Below are positions 1 through 10,457 of a stretch of DNA of 10,457 nucleotides, in pieces (within the stretch, counting starts at the first letter, position 1; each line of letters opens with the position of its first letter). Location of the stretch: UHGV virus genome UHGV-2079495; one strand, written 5' to 3'. The position numbers and the translations under genes were made by a program. This DNA is from a virus. The notes beneath the pieces are model-generated. The model saw only the letters and a program-made list of their open reading frames with translations. It was not told where the DNA came from and searched no databases.

Positions 1-903
1 TTATGAAAGCATAGACCGTTTACCCTCCCTGGGTACGACGGAACAGGGGTCCTGATGGATAATCACATCCGATCCCGGAAAACGCCGTAAAATAGCCTGC
101 TCTACCTGATCCGCCACCATATGTGCCTGAACCAAAGGCAGAGAGTCTTCCATTTCCAAATGAATCTGAATAAAGCGGGTCGGCCCTGACTGCCGCGTGC
201 GAAGATCGTGAGCGCCGCTAACACCCGGCCAGGAAGTCACGATATCAATAATTTCTTGCCGTTCCTCATCAGGCAATGCGCGATCCAGTAATGACTGTAC
301 CGCCTCATATCCCATGCGTAACGCGCTATATAAAATATAGATGCCGATTCCCAATGCAAACAGAGCATCGGCGCGATGCCAGCCGTACCAGGACAACCCC
401 AGCGCCAGCAGAATTGCGCCGTTCATCATAACATCAGACTGGTAATGTAGCATATCAGCCCGCACCGCCTGGCTTTGCGTCCGGCGCACCACCCAACGCT
501 GAAACGAGACAAGGATAATCGTACAAATTAGCGCCACAATTGTCACGATAACCCCGACGCCTGGATCTGTCATCGGTGTTGGAGATATCAGATGTTGAAT
601 ACCCGTCAAAAACAGGAATAGTGCCGAACCGGAGATAAACATACTTTGCGCCAGCGCCGCGAGGGACTCTGCTTTACCGTGACCAAACGAGTGATTATCG
701 TCGGCAGGTTGCAGGGAATATCGCACCACCAGTAAATTCGTCAACGACGCGCCGATATCCACCAGCGAATCCACCAGCGCGGCGAGAATACTCACCGACC
801 CGGTATACCACCATGCAAAAATTTTAATCAGCAATAGCAACGAAGCCATCGCCGTCGCAGCAATCGCCGCCCGACTGACCAGCCGTCCATAAGATTGATT
901 CAT
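1..903 (-). CDS. fieF: Cation-diffusion-facilitator family ferrous-iron/zinc efflux transporter FieF (YiiP), complete; the window begins at its stop codon
   Basis: The 306-aa ORF translation contains, from the internal Met ([37 protein letters not shown]...), a 300-aa protein that I recognise as essentially full-length enterobacterial FieF/YiiP. It has multiple hydrophobic TM segments and a C-terminal cytoplasmic domain. Minus-strand SD GGGAG lies about 8 nt upstream of the ATG at 901-903. The ATG at 919-921 is an in-frame upstream alternative, judged less likely. Confidence 0.93.
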
Positions 904-929
904 AAATACTCCCGCTATCAACTGACGCT

Positions 930-1139: not shown

Positions 1140-1772
1140 TTACTTCCATCCACACGCTTTTTGAAGTGGCTTCAATGCCTCAGACAGACCAGCAACATCA
1201 AATGTCGCGCTCACGGGACTTTCATTGTAAGGCGTGATCTGAGTAAACATTGAGTTAGCCTGGCTCAGCGCCTTGACGAACTCAATGACATTGCCACGAT
1301 AAAATACCGATTTGGTATCGCTAGATATGTCCCATGTTTTCGTTTTTGCCTTCTGTTTATCCAAGCGAGATAACATCTGTGTTTCGTTCAACCCAAGATA
1401 GGTATCCCAATTGAGGAAAAGTTCTGTTTTTTTCTCGCGGCAAGTGATGTAAAGACTTGGTGTGATCGATTCCCCAAACTGTGACCGGAAAGAATCATTA
1501 GCAGAAAGGCTAATATAAACATTCTCTGAATCATCCACGGGTGAAGTTTTCGTGGATACCTGCCATTTTCCAACACCTACCACTGGCTTAGCCTCTTCGG
1601 CTACTTTCGGTGGAAGAACCTTATCGTAACAAGCTAAACGCGCATCACTTTTTGCCTCGGATTGGCATTTCATTAATGCGTCATTGTTAATATCGGCTTT
1701 AACTGGTTCTACCGCATACGCTGTTGATACAGCAGAAGAGCAAAGCGCCATAGCAATGATTATCTTTTTCAT
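1140..1772 (-). CDS. Secreted/periplasmic protein of unknown function with a Sec signal peptide and four Cys; carries a CYD motif. Family assignment (possibly VasI-like/DUF) is unverified
   Basis: ORF 1140..1787. The N-terminus MKKIIIAMALCSSAVSTAYA-VEP is a classical signal peptide with an AYA SPase I site. The preferred start is the ATG at 1772-1770, with AAGG about 8 nt upstream. The alternative ATG at 1787-1785 overlaps the upstream gene's stop as ATGA. The mature part is hydrophilic with Cys in MKCQSE, RLACYD, ITCREKK and KACGWK. A few hand-counted 60-nt lines give roughly 40-45% G+C. Confidence 0.7.
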   Translation of the reverse strand: MKKIIIAMALCSSAVSTAYAVEPVKADINNDALMKCQSEAKSDARLACYDKVLPPKVAEEAKPVVGVGKWQVSTKTSPVDDSENVYISLSANDSFRSQFGESITPSLYITCREKKTELFLNWDTYLGLNETQMLSRLDKQKAKTKTWDISSDTKSVFYRGNVIEFVKALSQANSMFTQITPYNESPVSATFDVAGLSEALKPLQKACGWK

Positions 1773-1783
1773 ACCATTACCTT

Positions 1784-2116
1784 TCATGATTTCGGGCGAG
1801 TAAAGAAAACAAACATTCCGATAATGATATCGCCAATAACCCAGATGGTTCCCAGCATCATCATCCCCAGCCCCGTACCAATTGCGGCTCCGGCCCGTTC
1901 TGCGTCTGAGGCTGCGTTATTGATAACGTCACTACTGCCGCCAGCCCCGGCAAAAATGCAATAGATCATAAAGATGTTAAACAGGATAAAAATCCATTTA
2001 ACGATCTTGCCAAATAATGAGCGCTTCGGCTTTCTGACCTGATGGCCGCAAGACGGGCATTTAAACGCTGAATCACTAATTTCTTTACTGCATTCCGGGC
2101 AGTTTACTAATGCCAT
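1784..2116 (-). CDS. Small zinc-ribbon membrane protein (N-terminal CPxC...CPxCG zinc ribbon, two predicted TM helices), unknown function
   Basis: ORF 1784..2137. Motif ...VNCPECSKEISDSAFKCPSCGHQ... is followed by hydrophobic stretches IVKWIFILFNIFMIYCIFAGAG and AAIGTGLGMMMLGTIWVIGDIIIGMFVFF. Preferred start is the ATG at 2116-2114 (MALVNCPEC), with GGAG/AGGA upstream; ATGs at 2137 and 2131 are alternatives. The stop overlaps the start of the downstream gene (ATGA), suggesting translational coupling. Confidence 0.65.
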   Translation of the reverse strand: MALVNCPECSKEISDSAFKCPSCGHQVRKPKRSLFGKIVKWIFILFNIFMIYCIFAGAGGSSDVINNAASDAERAGAAIGTGLGMMMLGTIWVIGDIIIGMFVFFTRPKS

Positions 2117-2180
2117 TTTCCTAGACTCCATAGACATGGTTACATAACCGCCATAAAGCCTATCAGTTGATTTTGTTTGA

Positions 2181-2498: not shown

Positions 2499-2527
2499 AG
2501 TATAACGCTTAAGACGTTGAATCGTCA
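2499..2527 (-). promoter_or_regulatory. Candidate sigma70 promoter for ogr (minus strand: TGACGA-N17-TATACT), overlapping the 3' end of D
   Basis: Minus-strand -10 TATACT at 2504-2499 and -35-like TGACGA at 2527-2522 with a 17-nt spacer, about 40 nt upstream of the ogr ATG. Judged by eye. Confidence 0.35.
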
Positions 2528-3627
2528 CTCTCCGCTGTCCAGTCGTCGATTTTTACTTCCAGTTCCAGCGACGTGGTAAACCCTCCCCCGCCAATATCGT
2601 GAACGCACCGCGTTATCGTCCAGTTCCCACTGTCGATCGTGGACTTAAAGCCGTAGACGCTGGCGGGCTGTTCCGGGTACAAATCTGCGCGGCCACGCGC
2701 TAGGGTGATGCTGAACGTCGCCGCCCCACGCTGCAACTCTCGCCACTTAGCCGCAGCGGCACGCTTCGCCGCCTTTTCCGTCTTGAAAGTTTTACGGATA
2801 ACAAAAACGTTACCTTCGGCCCCGGCCAGATAATCCCCTTCTTTTTTGCTTGATGCAGGTTCTTTCTTTTTGGCCTGGCTGGTGCGTCGCCTGCGGGTGG
2901 TTTTCTTCACGGTAGTGGATGGCTTTTTGCCAAAGTTGAGATCAAGCCAGTATGCAGTTACGCCCGTGTACGCGTCGCGGTCAGCTACGTTAAACCTATG
3001 TTTATCACCGCTTGACCGGACGATCTCGATCACTGGCAACGGCTTGCCGCTTTGCGTTACTCCCTTGCCCGGCGTGATAAACAGAAGCATACCGTTTTTA
3101 ATGGTTGCCACCGCGCCCAGCATTTCGGCCATACGCGTTAAGAAGCTGATATCTGATTCACTCGTCTGATCGGCGTGGTCTATCTCAATCTTCGCCAGTT
3201 CTTCGCTGACACCCGCACGCAGATCGTAGCGGCTGGCAATGCTGGCGACCACATCCCCCACGGTAATATCGTGCCAGCTATATTCCCGCTTCACGTTGAA
3301 GGTATCGCGGAAATCTGCGCTTCTGGCACTGATCGTTAGCTGGTCAGGCGGGCCAGCGTGTCCGATCTCGTCAACCGTATACACGCCCTTAAAAACCAAT
3401 GGATCATTATCCCAGCCCAGCGCCACCGATATCTTTGCGCCGCGTGATGGTAATGCTACCTGCCCGTCTGCATCATCCAGAGTCAGATCCAGTGTGTCCG
3501 CTTCGAAGCCCCGGTTATCTGTCAGGGAAAGGGAGATCAGCCGGTTATCCAGCGCCGTAAGCTGCTTACCTTCAATCTCAATACTGAACGCCGGGCGCGG
3601 CGAATATCGGTTTTCTGTCGTGTCCAT
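2509..3627 (-). CDS. D: P2 gpD-family tail protein (phage late control gene D protein)
   Basis: 372-aa ORF. Size (P2 gpD is about 387 aa) and position adjacent to ogr match, and the sequence character (MDTTENRYSPRPAFSIEIEGK..., C-terminal GGGGFTTSLELEV) fits the late-control-D family as I recall it. SD GAAGGGG lies upstream of the ATG at 3627. Confidence 0.88.
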   Translation of the reverse strand: MDTTENRYSPRPAFSIEIEGKQLTALDNRLISLSLTDNRGFEADTLDLTLDDADGQVALPSRGAKISVALGWDNDPLVFKGVYTVDEIGHAGPPDQLTISARSADFRDTFNVKREYSWHDITVGDVVASIASRYDLRAGVSEELAKIEIDHADQTSESDISFLTRMAEMLGAVATIKNGMLLFITPGKGVTQSGKPLPVIEIVRSSGDKHRFNVADRDAYTGVTAYWLDLNFGKKPSTTVKKTTRRRRTSQAKKKEPASSKKEGDYLAGAEGNVFVIRKTFKTEKAAKRAAAAKWRELQRGAATFSITLARGRADLYPEQPASVYGFKSTIDSGNWTITRCVHDIGGGGFTTSLELEVKIDDWTAESDDSTS

Positions 3628-3784: not shown

Positions 3785-4978
3785 ATGGCCACTAACTACC
3801 ATCACGGTGTAACCGTCACGGAAACCACCGACCTTAGCACGATGATCACCGACATTGATTCTGCGGTGATCGGCGTTGTCTGCACCGCTGATGATGCGGA
3901 CGAAACAGCGTTCCCGCTGGATACCCCTGTACTGATCACCCGCGTGGCTAACATGCTGGGCAAGGCAGGTAAAACCGGCACCCTGTTTACCACCCTGAAA
4001 GCGATTTCAGACCAGACCAGCCCGCAAACCATTGTGATCCGCGTTGCTGATGCTGCAAATATCGAACCGCCAGAAGGCGGCACCGCACAGACACAGGATC
4101 AACTGGTTATTGGCGGCACCGATGCAAACGGACGCTTTACCGGCATGTACGCGCTGCTGTCTGCCGAAATGCGCGTAGGCGTGCGCCCACGTGTGCTGGC
4201 TGTTCCCGGTCTTGATACGGAAGCGGTGGCCGCACAACTCGGCGTCATTGCCGAAAAGCTGCGCGCGTTTGCTTACGTGGCAGCGAACGGCTGCAACACT
4301 ATCGCCGAAGTGAAGGAATACCGCGAACAGTTCTCCCAGCGTGAAATGATGGTTATCTGGCCTAATTTCATCTGCTACGACACCAACGCCGGGGCGAATG
4401 CCACCGTGCCCGTGGGTGCCCATGCGGTTGGGATGCGCGCCAAAATCGACGCAACGCAGGGCTGGCATAAAACCATTTCCAACGTGCCCGTTAATAACGT
4501 GCTGGGGATGGATCGGGATATCTATTTCACGTTGCAGGGCACCGATACCGACGCCGACGAACTGAACGCAGCAGGCGTTACCACGCTGATCAAGCAGGAC
4601 GGCTACCGCATCTGGGGATCGCGTACCTGCGACGCGGAAACGTATATCTTCGAAAGCTATACCCGAACCGCGCAGATCGTTGCGGATACCGTCGCCGAAG
4701 CCCATTTCGCCTATGTTGATAAACCGCTTACCCCGTCGCTGGTAAAGGACATTGTGGACGGCATCAATAAGAAGCTGACCTCATATGTGACGGCTGGCAA
4801 GCTGCTGGGCGCCCGCTGCTGGTATGACCCGGAACCGAATACCTCGGAAACCCTGCGCAATGGTCAACTGACCATTAAGTACAACTACACCCCTGTTCCA
4901 CCGCTGGAAAATCTCAGCCTGGTACAGGAGTTCACCGACGAATATTTCGCTACGTTTTCCAGCGCAGTGAATAACTAA
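3785..4978 (+). CDS. FI: P2 gpFI-family contractile tail sheath protein
   Basis: 397 aa (P2 FI is about 396 aa). N-terminus MATNYHHGVTVTE... and overall sequence recognised as the myovirus P2-type sheath. Followed at a 12-nt spacing by the tube gene. Confidence 0.93.
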   Translation: MATNYHHGVTVTETTDLSTMITDIDSAVIGVVCTADDADETAFPLDTPVLITRVANMLGKAGKTGTLFTTLKAISDQTSPQTIVIRVADAANIEPPEGGTAQTQDQLVIGGTDANGRFTGMYALLSAEMRVGVRPRVLAVPGLDTEAVAAQLGVIAEKLRAFAYVAANGCNTIAEVKEYREQFSQREMMVIWPNFICYDTNAGANATVPVGAHAVGMRAKIDATQGWHKTISNVPVNNVLGMDRDIYFTLQGTDTDADELNAAGVTTLIKQDGYRIWGSRTCDAETYIFESYTRTAQIVADTVAEAHFAYVDKPLTPSLVKDIVDGINKKLTSYVTAGKLLGARCWYDPEPNTSETLRNGQLTIKYNYTPVPPLENLSLVQEFTDEYFATFSSAVNN

Positions 4979-4990
4979 CCGGGGGCGCTT

Positions 4991-5506
4991 ATGGCACTGC
5001 CTAAGAAACTCAAATATTTCAATATGTTCTTTGACGGGGATAACTACTTCGGCATGGTGCCGGAAATCACCCCCGCCAAACTCACCAAAAAAACCGAAGA
5101 CTACCAGGCGGGCGGTATGCCGGGTTCAGTTGCGGTGGATCTGGGCTTCGACGCTGGCGCCCTGGATATGGATATTACGCTGGGCGGCATGGATGCCGGG
5201 CTAATGAAAAAATGGGGCGTTACCACTGCGGACGGAATGCAGGTGCGCTTTGCTGGCTCTTACCAGGACGATGCGACCGGCGACGCCGTACCGTGCGAAA
5301 TCCAGACGCGTGGCCGCTTCACTGAACTGGATCCCGGTTCGGCAAAGGTTGGGGATGATACTTCGCATAAGTACACCCTGAAAAATACCTATTACAAGCT
5401 GACCATCAATAGCGAAGAAATTATCGAAATTGATGTGCTCAACATGATCTACAAAGTTGCCGGTGTGGATGTGCTGGAAAAACACCGCGCTAACATCGGC
5501 TTATAA
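4991..5506 (+). CDS. FII: P2 gpFII-family tail tube protein
   Basis: 171 aa (P2 FII is about 172 aa). Conserved position between sheath and E. N-terminus MALPKKLKYFNMFFDG... is typical of P2-like tube proteins. SD GGGGG upstream. Confidence 0.9.
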   Translation: MALPKKLKYFNMFFDGDNYFGMVPEITPAKLTKKTEDYQAGGMPGSVAVDLGFDAGALDMDITLGGMDAGLMKKWGVTTADGMQVRFAGSYQDDATGDAVPCEIQTRGRFTELDPGSAKVGDDTSHKYTLKNTYYKLTINSEEIIEIDVLNMIYKVAGVDVLEKHRANIGL

Positions 5507-5520
5507 GGAAACCCGGCACC

Positions 5521-5856
5521 ATGAGCAAGACCAAAGAAAACACCGTTATTCTTACCGCCCCTATTACGCGCGGTAAGACCAAAATCACCGAAGTGGCGAT
5601 CACTTCCGTGCTTAAACAGGCTGGATCACTGCGCGGCTTAAAAGCCTATGACGTGCTGACGTCCAACTATGACGCGCTGGTTATTCTGCTGCCCCGCGTT
5701 ACCGCTCCGGCATTAACCGCCGATGAGATTGCCCGAATGGATACCTGGGATTTTTGCCAGTTAGCCAACGCGGTGGTTGATTTTTTGCAACCCTCTTCGG
5801 ATCTGACCGCGACGGATACGGGCAACGAATCATCCGATGCCCCTGCGAACGCATAG
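5521..5856 (+). CDS. E: P2 gpE-family tail assembly chaperone (zero-frame product)
   Basis: 111-aa ORF immediately after FII and before the tape measure. Contains the TTTTTTG slippery heptamer near its 3' end. SD AAGGAAAC upstream. Confidence 0.85.
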   Translation: MSKTKENTVILTAPITRGKTKITEVAITSVLKQAGSLRGLKAYDVLTSNYDALVILLPRVTAPALTADEIARMDTWDFCQLANAVVDFLQPSSDLTATDTGNESSDAPANA

Positions 5857-5981
5857 AAGACCTGATGGCAGATATCGCCGTCATATTCCACTGGCGGCCG
5901 GTAGAGATGGACGCCATGACGGTACAGGAAATACTGTTATGGCGTGATCAGGCGGCTGCGCGCAGTGGTGGAGATCACTAA
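5521..5981 (+). CDS. E': gpE+E' tail assembly chaperone fusion made by a programmed -1 ribosomal frameshift at 5781-5787
   Basis: After a -1 slip on T-TTT-TTG (zero-frame codons GAT TTT TTG at 5779-5787), my hand translation from 5787 reads ATLFGSDRDGYGQRIIRCPCERIEDLMADIAVIFHWRPVEMDAMTVQEILLWRDQAAARSGGDH. This open frame stops at TAA 5979-5981, which directly abuts the tape-measure ATG at 5982, the same arrangement as P2 E/E'/T. Confidence 0.7.
5781..5787 (+). promoter_or_regulatory. Programmed -1 frameshift slippery heptamer TTTTTTG (X XXY YYZ in the E frame)
   Basis: Exact heptamer in the correct phase (T-TTT-TTG) relative to the E reading frame. The -1 frame is open for 64 codons and ends exactly at the T start. 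Confidence 0.7.
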
Positions 5982-8900
5982 ATGGCAGACCGCAATTTAA
6001 ATATCAGGGTGGCATTCAGCGCCCTGAATAATATGTCCCGCCCTGTCAACGCGGCGCGCCAGAGTGCCGCCGCGTTGGCGTCTCAAATCAATCAGACCAA
6101 AACCAGCATTAAAGGGCTTGAGCGTCAGGCAACCAGCTTTGACCGCCTCACCGCAGCCAATAAAAAAACCACCGAACAACTGGCCCAGGCGAAAGAACAG
6201 GCCCGGCAAATGGCGGCGGCTTATGGCCCGTTACGCCAGCGCAGCGCCGAACAGGTTGCCGCCCTCAATCAGCAACGTGCAGCCATTCGCCAGTTAACCC
6301 AGCAGCAGAAAGGCGAGCAGACGCAGCTTAACCAGTTGCGCGCCAGCTTCTACAGCGAAGGCATTGCGATCAGCAGCGCCAGCCGGGCGACGGAACAGAT
6401 CAACCAGCGCACCGCGCAATACAACCGCCAGCTTGCCGAACAGCAGCGACGGCTTGACGCTGTTAACCAGGCGCAGGCCCGTTACAGCCGCGCCAAAGAA
6501 ACCGGCGAAAAGATGATGAGCGGGGGGATGAAAACCGCCGCAGTAGGGGCGGCAACCCTCGCACCTGTCGCCGCTGCGGTTAAATCATACAGCAGCCTTG
6601 AAGACGCCATGAAAGGCGTAGCCAAACAGGTAAACGGCTTGCGTGACGACAGCGGCAACCGCACCCCGCAGTATGAAGAAATGCAGCGGGCGATCATGGA
6701 TGCCAGCGAAAAGCTACCAATGGCTAACGGCGCTGTTGACTATGCCGCCCTGGTCGAAGGTGGCGCGCGCATGGGCGTGGCAAACAGCGATGATCCGTGG
6801 GAAAAACAAAAAGCCGATCTGCTGGCTTTCGCCAGCATGGCGGCAAAAGCTTCGGTAGCCTTTGAACTGCCCGCCGATCAGCTTTCTGAAAGCCTCGGTA
6901 AGATTGCCGGGCTGTATAAAATCCCTACCCAGAATATTGAACAGTTAGGCGACGCCATAAACTACCTGGACGATAACGCGAAGTCGAAAGGCTCCGATAT
7001 TATCGACGTGCTCCAGCGCGTTGGCGGACTTGCCAGCCAACTGGATTACAAGCAAGCCGCCGCGCTGGGTTCCACCTTCCTGACGCTTGGATCACCTGCC
7101 GAAGTTGCCGCCAGCGCAACCAATGCAATGGTGCGCGAACTATCGATCGCCACAGTACAAAGCGATAAATTTTTGGGTGCGCTGGATGAAATCGGCATCA
7201 ATGCTGAAAAAGTCCAGAAAAGCATGTCAGTGGACGCGATGGGCACGATCATTTCAGTGCTGGAAGCGTCCAAAAAACTTGCACCAGATAAGCAGGTAGC
7301 CAACCTTACTCAGATTTTCGGTAAAGAGTTCGGCGATGATGCGCAGAAACTTGCGAACAACCTGCCCGAACTACGCCGCCAGATAGAACTGACGCAGGGC
7401 GCAGCCGCTAAAGGTTCCATGAATCGGGAATCTGATATCAATAAAGCGTCCCTTTCAGCTCAGTGGCAACTGACCAAAACCGGCGCGGTTAACGCATTGA
7501 GTTCAGCAGGGGAAACGCTCCGCGAACCGCTGATGGATATCATGCTTACCGTCAGTAAGGTGGTTGGCAGCGTCCGCCGCTGGGTTGAGGCAAACCCGGC
7601 TCTGGTTGGCTCAATCATGAAAGTCACCGCAGCCATAGGCGCGTTGCTGGTTGTCGTGGGTGGCCTGATGCTGACCATCGGCGCAGTGCTCGGCCCGATG
7701 GCACTTGTTCGCCTCAGCTTCACCACGCTGGCTGGCTCCGGTGGGGTAACTCCCCTCATAGGCTCGCTGGGAAAATTATCCAGCACATTACGCGGGCTGA
7801 TCCCCTCACTATCTGGCGTGGGCCGAAGTATTAAAGACTGGCCTGCCCTCTTCCGATCTGCTGCGTCTGGCATTACCCAATTTAGTAAACAAGCTATTGG
7901 CGGGTTAAACACAGCGTTAATGGCACTTTCACGCGGTGCTGTTGCTGCCGGACAGGGGCTATTTACCCTATTCACAAGGCCTATGACGGCTATAACCTGG
8001 CTTGGTAATGGCCTCAGAACTCTGGCGACCTCCGGTTTCGGCGCTTTGCTGAACGTTGGACGCACCGTAATGATGGCGTTGGGTGGCGGGTTATCATTAC
8101 TTCTTAGCCCTATTGGAATACTGGTAATCGCTTTATCAGCAGCAGCGATCGCCGTTATTAAATTCTGGGAACCTATAAAAGCCTTTTTCACTGGCTTTTA
8201 CACCGGGTTAATGAGTGGCTTACAGCCTTTAACCTCAGCATTTAGTACAGCCTTTGCACCACTAGCCCCACTCTTTGACTCTATCGGTAATGCTGTCGGT
8301 GGCGTCTGGGAGTGGTTCACAAAACTATTCGAACCTATCCAGTTCTCCAGCGAAGCGCTAGCCTCCTGCACCAGTGCCGGGGAAACGTTCGGTAAGGTTG
8401 TAGGTAACGCTCTATCTGCATTAACACCAATAATCGAAGGAATAGCGCGCGGTATAGGATGGGTACTGGAAAAACTCGGCGCCATCCCCGACGCAACAAA
8501 AGCAGCGCAGCAAGCTGCGGAAAGTATGCACAAAGACCCTGTTGTCTGGGAGTGGGATCCGCAGCAAAAGAAAATGGTTAAAAAGGGTTGGAACTGGTCG
8601 CCGAAAGACGATCAGCAGAAGAAAACCAACCAGAAGCAACAGCAGGCCATTGACCAGCAGAAAAAGCAGGAAAGCTTAATTAACTCGCTCAAGGGCCCGG
8701 CCAACATCGTGCCGAAGATGAGCAGCAGCCTGGATAAGATCGCCACCAATACCACGGAGAAGAAAGACGGCCCCGGCGAAATTGTCTTCAAGAATAAGCA
8801 GCCCTATATCCCGATCCGTGGTGGATATTCGGAACCGCTTAAGCAGGTGCAGCGCCAACTACCATCCCTTACCGATTGGGTGACGCAGCAGGCCGGATCG

Positions 8901-9152
8901 CTGATCGCTTCCGTTACGCCTTGGCAGGTTGAGAAGCCCGCCGCACGGATGCCTGTTTCGGCGTCTCCGTCTGCGGCTTCCGTCGCTGCGCTGATGCCTG
9001 CTCCGGGTGGCGATGTATATAACCTTAACTTCGACTTTAGCGGCCAGAAACTGGATGAAGAAACCATTATCAGGCGCGTGCGCGAAGAACTTGCGTTAGC
9101 GAAGCAACAGGCCGACCGGCGCAAGCGCTCCCAACTGACCGATCACGTCTAA
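5982..9152 (+). CDS. T: Tail tape measure protein (P2 gpT family)
   Basis: 1056-aa ORF immediately after E/E'. N-terminal Q/A-rich, coiled-coil-like region, a central hydrophobic Gly/Ala-rich segment and a C-terminal K/Q-rich region, typical of tape measure proteins. Position between E' and U is as in P2. Confidence 0.9.
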   Translation: MADRNLNIRVAFSALNNMSRPVNAARQSAAALASQINQTKTSIKGLERQATSFDRLTAANKKTTEQLAQAKEQARQMAAAYGPLRQRSAEQVAALNQQRAAIRQLTQQQKGEQTQLNQLRASFYSEGIAISSASRATEQINQRTAQYNRQLAEQQRRLDAVNQAQARYSRAKETGEKMMSGGMKTAAVGAATLAPVAAAVKSYSSLEDAMKGVAKQVNGLRDDSGNRTPQYEEMQRAIMDASEKLPMANGAVDYAALVEGGARMGVANSDDPWEKQKADLLAFASMAAKASVAFELPADQLSESLGKIAGLYKIPTQNIEQLGDAINYLDDNAKSKGSDIIDVLQRVGGLASQLDYKQAAALGSTFLTLGSPAEVAASATNAMVRELSIATVQSDKFLGALDEIGINAEKVQKSMSVDAMGTIISVLEASKKLAPDKQVANLTQIFGKEFGDDAQKLANNLPELRRQIELTQGAAAKGSMNRESDINKASLSAQWQLTKTGAVNALSSAGETLREPLMDIMLTVSKVVGSVRRWVEANPALVGSIMKVTAAIGALLVVVGGLMLTIGAVLGPMALVRLSFTTLAGSGGVTPLIGSLGKLSSTLRGLIPSLSGVGRSIKDWPALFRSAASGITQFSKQAIGGLNTALMALSRGAVAAGQGLFTLFTRPMTAITWLGNGLRTLATSGFGALLNVGRTVMMALGGGLSLLLSPIGILVIALSAAAIAVIKFWEPIKAFFTGFYTGLMSGLQPLTSAFSTAFAPLAPLFDSIGNAVGGVWEWFTKLFEPIQFSSEALASCTSAGETFGKVVGNALSALTPIIEGIARGIGWVLEKLGAIPDATKAAQQAAESMHKDPVVWEWDPQQKKMVKKGWNWSPKDDQQKKTNQKQQQAIDQQKKQESLINSLKGPANIVPKMSSSLDKIATNTTEKKDGPGEIVFKNKQPYIPIRGGYSEPLKQVQRQLPSLTDWVTQQAGSLIASVTPWQVEKPAARMPVSASPSAASVAALMPAPGGDVYNLNFDFSGQKLDEETIIRRVREELALAKQQADRRKRSQLTDHV

Positions 9153-9161
9153 GGCAATATC

Positions 9162-9611
9162 ATGATGATGATTCTGGGGATGTTCCCCTTTTCACTGCAA
9201 ACCACACCTTACCAGAGTGCGAATAAAACCAACTCCTGGCGGCACGTCAAAAACGATCGCGTGGGGAAATCCCCGCGCTATCAGTTCATCGGCGCAGATG
9301 AAGAACCGTTCGTACTCAGCGGCACGCTGTACCCCGAAATAAGCGGCGGTGATGTGTCGCTTGTCATGCTGGAAACTATGGCTTTTTCCGGGCGCCCGTG
9401 GCCCCTGATAGAAGGCACGGGCAGGATCTACGGCATGTATGTAATTGAGCAGATCACGCAAAACCGGACGGAGTTTTTTAAGGACGGGAAGGCAAAGAAA
9501 ATTGATTTCACGCTCAACCTGAAACGGGTAAGCGAGGACATACGGGAAAAGCTGGCTGAAACCACTACCGACGATCTCTTCTCTCTGGTGAAAACCAACC
9601 TTTCGATATAA
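9162..9611 (+). CDS. U: P2 gpU-family tail protein
   Basis: 149 aa (P2 gpU is about 159 aa), directly downstream of T (9-nt gap, SD AAGG). N-terminus MMMILGMFPFSLQTTPYQ... resembles gpU as I recall it. Confidence 0.85.
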   Translation: MMMILGMFPFSLQTTPYQSANKTNSWRHVKNDRVGKSPRYQFIGADEEPFVLSGTLYPEISGGDVSLVMLETMAFSGRPWPLIEGTGRIYGMYVIEQITQNRTEFFKDGKAKKIDFTLNLKRVSEDIREKLAETTTDDLFSLVKTNLSI

Positions 9612-9614
9612 GAA

Positions 9615-9640
9615 AAGCGGGCCATTGCCCGCTTCGTCTT
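9615..9640. terminator. Hairpin AAGCGGGC-CATT-GCCCGCTT between convergent U and invertase genes; possible bidirectional terminator
   Basis: 8-bp stem at 9615-9634, 4 nt after the U stop. The plus-strand downstream tract CGTCTTCC is only weakly U-rich; the minus-strand tract (TTTCTTATA) is better, but the stem lies about 85 nt from the invertase stop. Confidence 0.4.
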
Positions 9641-9717
9641 CCGTAATACACCACCATAACTGACCGTGCTACAGCACCGTTAAAAGTGACCGTACTCGAT
9701 ACACACGGCCAGCACGG

Positions 9718-10299
9718 TTATAACCGGCCATGCGTGCCGGAATTCTTATCTCTGGTCGCTGGGAATTTTTTGTAAAGCGTAGATATCCCAACATCATAAA
9801 TTATGGCAACCCTCCGGCGCGATTCCCCTGCCGCTATTAACCTACCCGCCTGCGCCCATTGTTCTGGTGTTAGTTTTGGACGTCTACCGCCGATCCTTCC
9901 CTGCGCGCGAGCGGCCACCAGTCCTGCACGCGTACGCTCGACAATCAATTCTCTTTCCATCTCTGCCAGTGCTCCCATAACATGAAAAAAGAAACGCCCC
10001 ATTGGTGTTGAGGTATCAATACTGTCAGTCAGGCTGCGGAAGTTCACGGAACGTTGCTTTAGTTCCTCCACCAGAATGACCAAGTTCCGCATACTCCGCC
10101 CAAGACGATCCAGCTTCCAGACAACAAGCGTATCTTCTGGAGAAAGGCGCTTTAGTAATTTTTTAAGCCCTGGCCTTTCCGCTGTTCTCCCGCTCATTTT
10201 ATCTTCAAAAATTATCTCACATCCTGACCGCTCAAGCGCATCACGTTGCAAAGCCGTGTTCTGGTCATTTGTTGATACGCGCACATATCCAATAAGCAT
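9718..10299 (-). CDS. pin: Serine-recombinase DNA invertase of the Pin/Gin/Cin/Hin family
   Basis: 193-aa ORF MLIGYVRVSTNDQNT...DTLVVWKLDRLGRSM...SLTDSIDTSTPMGRFFFHVMGALAEMERELIVERT...STLYKKF. It is near-collinear with E. coli e14 Pin and Salmonella Hin as I recall them, with the catalytic Ser in the RVSTNDQ motif and a C-terminal HTH. SD AAGGAA upstream of the ATG at 10299-10297. Confidence 0.93.
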   Translation of the reverse strand: MLIGYVRVSTNDQNTALQRDALERSGCEIIFEDKMSGRTAERPGLKKLLKRLSPEDTLVVWKLDRLGRSMRNLVILVEELKQRSVNFRSLTDSIDTSTPMGRFFFHVMGALAEMERELIVERTRAGLVAARAQGRIGGRRPKLTPEQWAQAGRLIAAGESRRRVAIIYDVGISTLYKKFPATRDKNSGTHGRL

Positions 10300-10353
10300 G
10301 GTTTTTCATTCCTTTAAAACGATAAATCATGCCATTCGGCTAATAATTATGCA

Positions 10354-10379
10354 TTTTCAAAAACGTTCGTTTTGGAGGA
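10354..10379. other. Candidate 26-bp invertase crossover site (gix/hix/cix-like): TTTTCAAAAACG-TT-CGTTTTGGAGGA with a 2-bp core at 10366-10367
   Basis: Imperfect inverted repeat of 12-bp half-sites around a central TT/AA dinucleotide. The half-sites resemble the hix/gix half-sites I recall (TTATCAAAAACC and TTATCCAAAACC). It lies 55 bp upstream of the invertase start, as gix/cix sites do next to gin/cin. Confidence 0.6.
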
Positions 10380-10382
10380 ACC

Positions 10383-10457
10383 ATGCAACCGCTTGTTACC
10401 GGTGACTCAATTGCATATGTTCCTATCGGAGCGCAGACATTGATTATTCAGATTGGC
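10383..10457 (+). CDS. 5' end of an ORF beginning just inside the putative invertible segment (MQPLVTGDSIAYVPIGAQTLIIQIG...); function unknown, runs off the window
   Basis: ATG at 10383 preceded by a strong SD, GGAGG at 10374-10378, which lies inside the right half of the crossover site. Only 25 codons are visible. It is not in the supplied ORF track, presumably because it is below the length cut-off. Confidence 0.3.
   Translation, partial: MQPLVTGDSIAYVPIGAQTLIIQIG

Follow-up and report, generated by a model that had tools for sequence, protein, structure and literature searches.

Among described DNA inversion systems, those closest to the locus considered here are the G segment of phage Mu and its counterparts in Fels-2 and other Peduoviridae. 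The locus is at the right-hand end of a 10,457 nucleotide stretch of viral DNA (UHGV virus genome UHGV-2079495), which is referred to here as the window. The Mu system comprises the invertase Gin, the sites gixL and gixR, and the gene pairs S/U and S'/U', and the window resembles it in several respects. The invertases are identical at 136 of 193 residues (70%), the 26 bp crossover site stands in register with gixR, and the distance from its core to the invertase start codon is 67 nt in both. As in Mu, the invertase gene flanks the invertible segment, with transcription directed away from it, a constant fibre N-terminus is found beyond the distal site, and two C-terminal cassettes are placed head to head, each with its own chaperone. 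There are also differences from Mu: the segment of the window is 1.24 kb, compared to approximately 3 kb; its cassettes consist of short Gp53-like_C tips, each about 100 aa in length, compared to the long variable parts of S; the core of its site is TT, compared to GA in the Mu copy; and its host phage is P2-like.

P2-type tail modules containing H, G, G', and H' are present in Fels-2 and in the Peduoviridae S164, pro483, and SEN8, where the invertases are 79–82% identical to that of the window. The site in S164 is of the same ACG-AA-CGT type and aligns in register with the window site. In these phages all genes are on one strand, H being followed by the segment, the invertase, and then FI, FII, E, T, U, and D, whereas the FI-U block is flipped in the window. 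This flipped block is shared by SEN4 and SEN5 of the genus Senquatrovirus, but these have no invertase. Because many Peduoviridae, including S164, pro483, SEN8, and Fels-2, have invertases 79–85% identical to that of the window, and because the order H, segment, invertase is common in the family, the locus adds a further member to a well-known kind. The switch is an ordinary one of the Mu/Fels-2 type, and no open question is advanced by it.

Salmonella Hin belongs to the same recombinase subfamily, its core is likewise 2 bp of A/T, and the hix half-site, which we take to be TTATCAAAAACC, is very similar to that of the window. As for Hin, the 5' part of the invertase gene would be expected to contain an enhancer. 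Hin, however, inverts a promoter along with its own gene, and so turns a downstream gene on or off, whereas in the window the invertase gene lies beyond the segment and 3' ends of coding sequences would be exchanged by in-frame fusion, with no uncoupling of a promoter or Shine-Dalgarno sequence. P1 Cin, p15B Min, and e14 Pin are of the same family and follow the same logic, with fibre cassettes exchanged between unrelated phages at crossover sites; the idea of horizontal exchange of fibre cassettes reportedly goes back to Sandmeier et al. and Haggard-Ljungquist et al. in 1992. The p15B Min system has six sites and many cassettes, in contrast to the two sites in the lineage of the window.

The invertase gene (9718–10299, minus strand) is identified from its open reading frame and homology as encoding a 193 aa serine recombinase of the Gin/Cin/Pin/Hin type. 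A phmmer search of the PDB returned the Mu Gin structure 3uj3 (E=2.2e-85, residues 1–183), two Mu Gin crystal-structure sequences being matched at E=2e-85 and 6e-84 (residues 1–183), while the match to gamma-delta resolvase is weaker (E=3e-27 vs 2e-85). The Pfam Resolvase (169 bits) and HTH_7 (49.7 bits) domains are both present. Together with the 2e-85 match to Mu Gin, these bear out the original prediction of a Pin/Gin-family invertase at this position. The sequence YVRVSTNDQ aligns to the catalytic Ser9 of Gin. In Hin numbering, the residues that contact the enhancer and Fis are Q151, R154, L155, and those of the basic helix B, and the motif Q-x-x-R-L in helix 1 of the DBD and the basic helix B are unique to Fis-dependent invertases (PMC3798978). 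From the alignment with Gin, the window invertase has QAGRL and GLKKLLKRL. The protein therefore has the traits of this group, namely a resolvase catalytic domain with its serine, a C-terminal HTH, and the Fis/enhancer contact residues. A scan for σ70 promoters around the crossover site found nothing on either strand, and the promoter of the invertase was not located.

The invertase-proximal crossover site, equivalent to gixR, is at 10354–10379 and is recognized from the sequence itself, from alignment, and from the breakpoints described below. It is made up of two imperfect 12 bp inverted half-sites, the outer half-site TTTTCAAAAACG (10354–10365) and the inner half-site CGTTTTGGAGGA (10368–10379), on either side of the 2 bp core TT (10366–10367), with the half-sites being complementary at 9 of 12 positions. 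From the near end of the site to the first base of the invertase start codon there are 55 nt, and the 26 bp imperfect palindrome had been placed 55 bp upstream of the invertase, with coordinates and sequence that are correct. When scored as a gix-type double half-site, the site reaches 19/24, a figure that is slightly circular as the half-site consensus was drawn partly from the same family of sites; the next best 26-mer in the window scores 14/24. In 60 shuffles the best score had a mean of 14.8 and was never above 17. The exact pattern AAACSNNSGTTT is found once in the window, at this site.

There are no other gix-like sites in the window, where the remaining best scores are at chance level. 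The sequence AAACCAACCTTT at 9592–9603, at the end of gpU, was considered as a second site and scores about 12/24 by hand. A layout of the Hin type, in which the invertase would lie inside the segment by means of a second site in the window, was rejected, there being no second gix-like site.

Comparison with relatives places the breakpoint at this same site. When 5,426 complete E. coli genomes were searched by megablast, the invertase region was 99.5% identical in 17, and every one of the matches ends at window positions 10372–10377, which is inside the site. Ten contigs encoding an identical invertase protein are the same up to the core dinucleotide and then continue into at least five unrelated sequences. 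That homology to relatives breaks exactly at the core supports the earlier view of the palindrome as a recombination site. Six IMG/VR contigs that share the outer flank carry further cassette types and, where they are long enough, have an inverted partner site (...CCAAACC AA GGTTTTGTAGAA) 1.87–2.07 kb away. The complete relative NZ_CP061764 has the order invertase, fibre tip, Tfa, Tfa, fibre tip, the N-terminal part of an H-like fibre, I, J, W, V, in which the two tips and the two Tfa genes form the segment. This layout matches the geometry of the Mu G segment and that of the Fels-2 annotation. There are exactly two sites in the complete relatives belonging to the lineage of the window.

Inversion itself is seen between the sibling E. 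coli isolates 0H26 and 0H23. These are identical over the 9.7 kb compared except for one stretch of 1825 nt, which in one isolate is the exact reverse complement of that in the other, without a single mismatch. At its invertase end the stretch is flanked by TTTTCAAAAACG TT GGTTTGGG, and at the end inside H by TTCTACAAAACC TT GGTTTGGG. The invertase of these isolates differs from that of the window by 1 aa (I29L), and the switch is active in this near-identical relative. The A...B segment of the window is also present in both orientations beside a single invertase flank, P0001 reading MPVSRYLCIFLNV/RFGGT and P0004 reading MPVSRYLCIFLNV/GLEDVV, with the slash at the junction. The alternative orientation is therefore present among relatives, in both the 0H26/0H23 and the P0001/P0004 pairs. 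Among contigs with the exact invertase flank of the window, the A...B segment is seen only with cassette B next to the invertase, and none is joined to cassette A. Comparison with these relatives suggests that the segment would also invert in the window's own genome.

The segment of the window was rebuilt from two overlapping metagenome contigs, L006 and L015, which come from other samples. The first of these matches the window at every one of 1764 nt and contains the whole of cassette B, 97 codons from the junction (RFGGTMQPLV...CHWIAIGY), followed by a 144 aa Tfa (Caudo_TAP). The window itself has the first 30 of the 97 codons (RFGGTMQPLVTGDS..., 10368–10457, plus strand). The second contig overlaps the first by 758 nt with 1 mismatch and runs on through a convergent 76 aa Tfa' and cassette A into the fibre gene, where the constant part is 100% identical over 376 nt to the H of the E. 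coli relatives. In this composite, the distal site is inside the P2 H-like tail-fibre gene and has the sequence TTCTACAAAGCC TT GGTTTGAAAGAT when read along H. A distance of 1242 bp separates the proximal and distal cores, which are inverted, being TT and AA on the plus strand, in agreement with the expectation of a second, inverted site some 1–5 kb away. The genome of the window presumably carries exactly this rebuilt distal part.

Both cassettes match Pfam Gp53-like_C, cassette B at 32.2 bits and the other at 60 bits (cut-off 24.9), and in both the domain begins approximately 20 residues past the junction. Fibre tips and tail-fibre assembly genes are thus what the segment holds, in keeping with the tail-fibre switch that had been proposed. 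As assembled, H reads ...ENVSVFLQSL/GLKDVV...WRALGK*, and following inversion in silico at the cores it reads ...ENVSVFLQSL/RFGGTMQPLV...WIAIGY*, in frame. Fusions of the same kind occur naturally and are also in frame: ...GTVKTALENL/RFGGTMQ in L021, ...GKDVAGLLAYL/RFGGTMQ in L023, and ...AAISTALTNL/RFGGTMQ in the IMG/VR contig L030. In the last of these, the upstream genes are of Mu type (DNA_circ_N, GpP, Baseplate_J, Mu_Gp48), and 87 nt are identical to window positions 10368–10454. The locus therefore has the traits of the Mu G segment, these being a constant N-terminal fibre part outside the segment, in-frame C-terminal joining, and a convergent Tfa for each cassette. Cassette B was not found in the GTDB representative genomes, and megablast of the complete E. 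coli genomes with it gave only weak Tfa matches; in the JGI metagenomes, L015 is the only match. The ORF that runs off the window does have homologues, with the closest, P0002 on L016, being 74% identical, and L021, L023, and L030 carrying others.

The end of the window is very probably the invertase-proximal boundary of an invertible tail-fibre segment of the Mu G-segment (Fels-2) type, in which the inner half-site codes for part of a silent cassette B. The Gin-like invertase would bind two 26 bp sites, that at 10354–10379 and an inverted one about 1.24 kb rightward in the H-like gene, cut both at the central TT/AA, and flip the DNA between them. The segment would be laid out as cassette B and Tfa converging on Tfa' and cassette A. 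The constant N-terminal part of the fibre would lie outside the distal site and be read through it, so that the fibre is completed by cassette A in the orientation of the window and by cassette B following inversion. Each cassette would provide a Gp53-like C-terminal tip domain of about 95–105 aa, then its own assembly chaperone. Cassette B would be the silent copy in the orientation of the window, equivalent to S'v of Mu. A change of host range is the expected consequence of such a switch.

A different role had been proposed for the sequence just inside the site, where a GGAGG was described 5 nt before an ATG that opens an ORF running off the window. The motif (10374–10378) and the position of the ATG (10383–10385) are as described, although the gap between them is 4 nt rather than 5. 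The frame of this ATG is open upstream across the whole of the site, as far as a TAA at 10341–10343, reading ...LCIFKNVRFGGTMQPLV. In the frame of the cassette, GGAGGA-ACC-ATG is Gly-Gly-Thr-Met, and the inner half-site CGTTTTGGAGGA is Arg-Phe-Gly-Gly. The purine-rich outer end of the half-site is GGATAA in Mu, GGAGAA in the E. coli relatives, and GGAGGA in the window, and this GGAGGA appears to be simply the cassette's version of that end of gix half-sites. In P0002, the closest cassette homologue, GGAGGA is kept but the ATG is replaced by CTA (Leu). Sister cassettes have ...NV G/R L/F G x G... at the same position, with no start codon nearby. Because the fusions are in frame, CTA stands in place of ATG, and the sister cassettes have no start here, the apparent Shine-Dalgarno sequence and start are read as codons, most likely the Gly-Gly-Thr-Met codons of a silent alternative fibre tip in which the ATG is an internal Met.

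It has to be weighed against this that the ORF at 10383 could be an independent first gene, translated from the GGAGG, with inversion separating its Shine-Dalgarno sequence and ATG from upstream expression signals, as in the original prediction. The GGAGG is indeed 4 nt before the ATG, gene callers start a 92 aa product at this ATG in three contigs (L006, L020, and L025), and the Gp53-like_C match is complete within these 92 aa. Such a gene is nonetheless very improbable. The frame remains open through the site; three natural contigs, like the inversion made in silico, join the cassette in frame to a fibre N-terminus; the ATG is not conserved in P0002 even though the GGAGGA is; and the sister cassettes have no start codon there. 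The σ70 scan gave nothing promoter-like facing the ORF, whose neighbour on that side is the divergently transcribed invertase. A conserved start of its own and expression set by the flip, the traits of an expression switch of the Hin type, are absent from the window ORF. Nor would inversion uncouple the ATG from what lies upstream, as the cassette, once inverted, would be read in frame through the site. Independent translation of the 92 aa remainder does not seem to be needed to explain anything, and it is not conserved. Improbable too is the compound idea that either the GGAGGA and ATG drive internal initiation, giving a free 92 aa Gp53-like tip domain, or some backbones have a layout with three sites. 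The source of a free tip of this kind may be the fibre mRNA or, in the silent state, antisense or read-through transcripts.

A segment that was once invertible could also have become frozen, through loss or degeneration of the partner site or inactivity of the invertase. With the exact flank of the window, the one orientation seen is that with cassette B beside the invertase, and derivatives that have no invertase do exist, SEN5 retaining only a piece of the 3' end of the invertase gene and MLG42 an orphan site and silent cassette. That the window contains such a relic is more improbable still, since it has an intact invertase ORF, whose product differs by 1 aa from one that evidently inverted its segment between sibling isolates, the distal site, as rebuilt, shares the TT core and has half-sites of a quality similar to the active E. 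coli pair, and the same segment occurs elsewhere in both orientations. An arrangement with more than two crossover sites, like that of Min or a shufflon, would allow cassette B to join several partners, perhaps with the invertase inside a larger invertible unit. This would account for L020, in which the site of cassette B is connected not to a fibre gene but to the sequence preceding the tail-sheath gene (FI), together with L021, which has the same invertase flank as L020 and has cassette B joined to a fibre gene; there is, in addition, a homologous orphan half-site next to FI in Yersinia phage MLG42. However, L020 is a 1.7 kb metagenome contig at 3x coverage that could be chimeric and belongs to a different phage backbone, there is one gix-like site in the window, and the complete relatives of its lineage have exactly two. 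A multi-site system is thus scarcely credible here, and the two-site tail-fibre segment is the reading retained in what follows.

For this two-site switch, dependence on Fis and an enhancer would be expected from its kinship with Hin and Gin. A candidate recombinational enhancer is at 10215–10278 (minus strand, +22 to +85 of the invertase gene), a stretch homologous to what is presumably the position of the Hin and Gin enhancers. A crude consensus scan of this region, which is also coding, found Fis-like 15-mers near +29/30 and +78, approximately 96 and 145 bp from the core. The 15-mers share alignment columns with Mu gin, P1 cin, and S164, and the distal Fis-like core does not have the consensus C at +7. 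The same stretch also encodes the catalytic motif and conserved protein motifs. In Hin, the proximal Fis site is approximately 100 bp away from hixL, and the two Fis sites are separated by 47 bp (PMC3798978). The geometry of the pair in the window fits these figures, as far as a crude scan of a region under coding constraint can be read, and is suggestive of a candidate Fis enhancer at +22 to +85.

There are consequences for the annotation of such regions. Short "phage tail protein" ORFs that have been started at or near sites of this kind would be silent C-terminal cassettes rather than genes that have a start of their own, and the fibre genes of such prophages are often mis-called as pseudogenes or as truncated, NZ_CP061764 being one example. 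Breaks in assembly at this spot would also be explained by the switch. The locus documents a Gin-type switch, presumably of host range, in a Senquatrovirus-like prophage, with one cassette common to a Mu-like phage, the 87 nt that can be compared being identical.

The element carrying the switch is a P2-like (Senquatrovirus-like) prophage inserted beside fieF (1–921, minus strand). In the listed gene order, two cargo genes and ogr are between fieF and gpD (2509–3627, minus strand), followed on the plus strand by the tail sheath FI, tube FII, gpE, tape measure, and gpU genes (3785–9611). The last of these, gpU (9162–9611), converges on the invertase gene, and between the two is a G+C-rich hairpin (9614–9635) with a terminator-like match, which is likely to be a terminator and the outer limit of the invertase module. 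A megablast search of the phage collection with the region of the switch gave no match, relatives being found only through protein or distant DNA searches.

Compared to the canonical order in the Peduoviridae, the FI-U block of the window is flipped, as it is at 97.5% identity in the Salmonella phages SEN4 and SEN5. Scanning of the block's borders found 0 inverted repeats and 0 gix-like sites. A flip of this block made by the invertase was rejected, given these borders and the occurrence of the arrangement in SEN4 and SEN5, which have no invertase. The flipped FI-U block is a genus-level trait of Senquatrovirus.

The tail block FI-FII-E-T-U (window 3785-9611) is inverted relative to the order seen in the canonical P2, Fels-2 and S164 genomes, with gpD (2509-3627) on one side of it and the invertase gene (9718-10299) on the other, and as a result gpD and FI are divergent. 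Neither inverted repeats nor gix-like sites are present at the borders of the flipped block. The Salmonella phages SEN4 and SEN5, of the genus Senquatrovirus, have the same flipped order and are 97.5% identical to the window over the junction between D and FI, whereas in P2, Fels-2 and S164 the tail block is unflipped. The fact that SEN4 and SEN5 share this arrangement means that the inversion is a trait of the lineage and is not a product of the invertase.

Salmonella phage SEN5 carries neither an invertase nor an invertible segment. Directly after its Tfa gene, however, there is a remnant of the invertase gene: SEN5 6939-7148 matches window 9600-9809 at 85%, a stretch that covers the intergenic region between gpU and the invertase, as well as approximately 90 nt at the 3' end of the invertase gene. 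SEN5 thus has the look of a phage from which the switch has been deleted.

Cassette B, the silent alternative tip of the tail fibre in the window, is also found outside the P2-like phages. Within 9707-10087 of an IMG/VR contig (UViG_3300029508_000005), a Mu-like phage carries it as the expressed end of its tail-fibre gene, and the 87 nt of the cassette that are all the contig offers are identical to the window. This occurrence in the fibre gene of a Mu-like phage, with such identity, indicates that cassette B has recently been exchanged between P2-like and Mu-like phages at the crossover site.

In the metagenome contig L020 (1355-1480), the cassette-B site is joined to a half-site, CCTTTGAAAGAA, rather than to a fibre gene, and this half-site is immediately 5' of a terminator, a promoter and the tail-sheath gene. 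The Yersinia phage MLG42, which has no invertase, carries a homologous orphan site at 3937-3962 that adjoins FI, with a silent fibre cassette in reverse orientation. It is possible that a third crossover site accounts for these junctions; a larger flip that takes in the invertase gene is also possible, as is an assembly chimera.

A weak gix-like string, GGTGAAAACC AA CCTTTCGATA, is located at the 3' end of gpU (window 9583-9608), about 110 nt past the stop codon of the invertase, and AA-CCTTT also occurs in the half-sites on the FI side in L020 and MLG42. Scored by hand, the string reaches about 12/24, which is chance level, and it was set aside as a coincidence.

In the RefSeq annotation of the complete relative NZ_CP061764 (11271-12464), the fibre gene is a pseudogene "missing C-terminus" accompanied by a separate small "phage tail protein", and short ORFs beginning at the crossover sites are entered as genes. 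The invertible segment has probably misled the annotation here, and these calls are likely to be artefacts.

The tape-measure gene (window 5982-9152) is 3171 nt (1056 aa), as it is in NZ_CP061764. E. coli 0H26/0H23 has a prophage that is near-identical apart from this gene, which there measures 2928 nt (975 aa; L013 1126-4053), a difference of 243 nt that would alter tail length.

Two cargo genes (window 1140-2137) separate ogr from fieF, a gene of the host, one for a type VI secretion-associated VasI/TagO-like protein of 215 aa and the other for a zinc-ribbon protein with a faint match to DrpB. Both may be morons at the prophage end.
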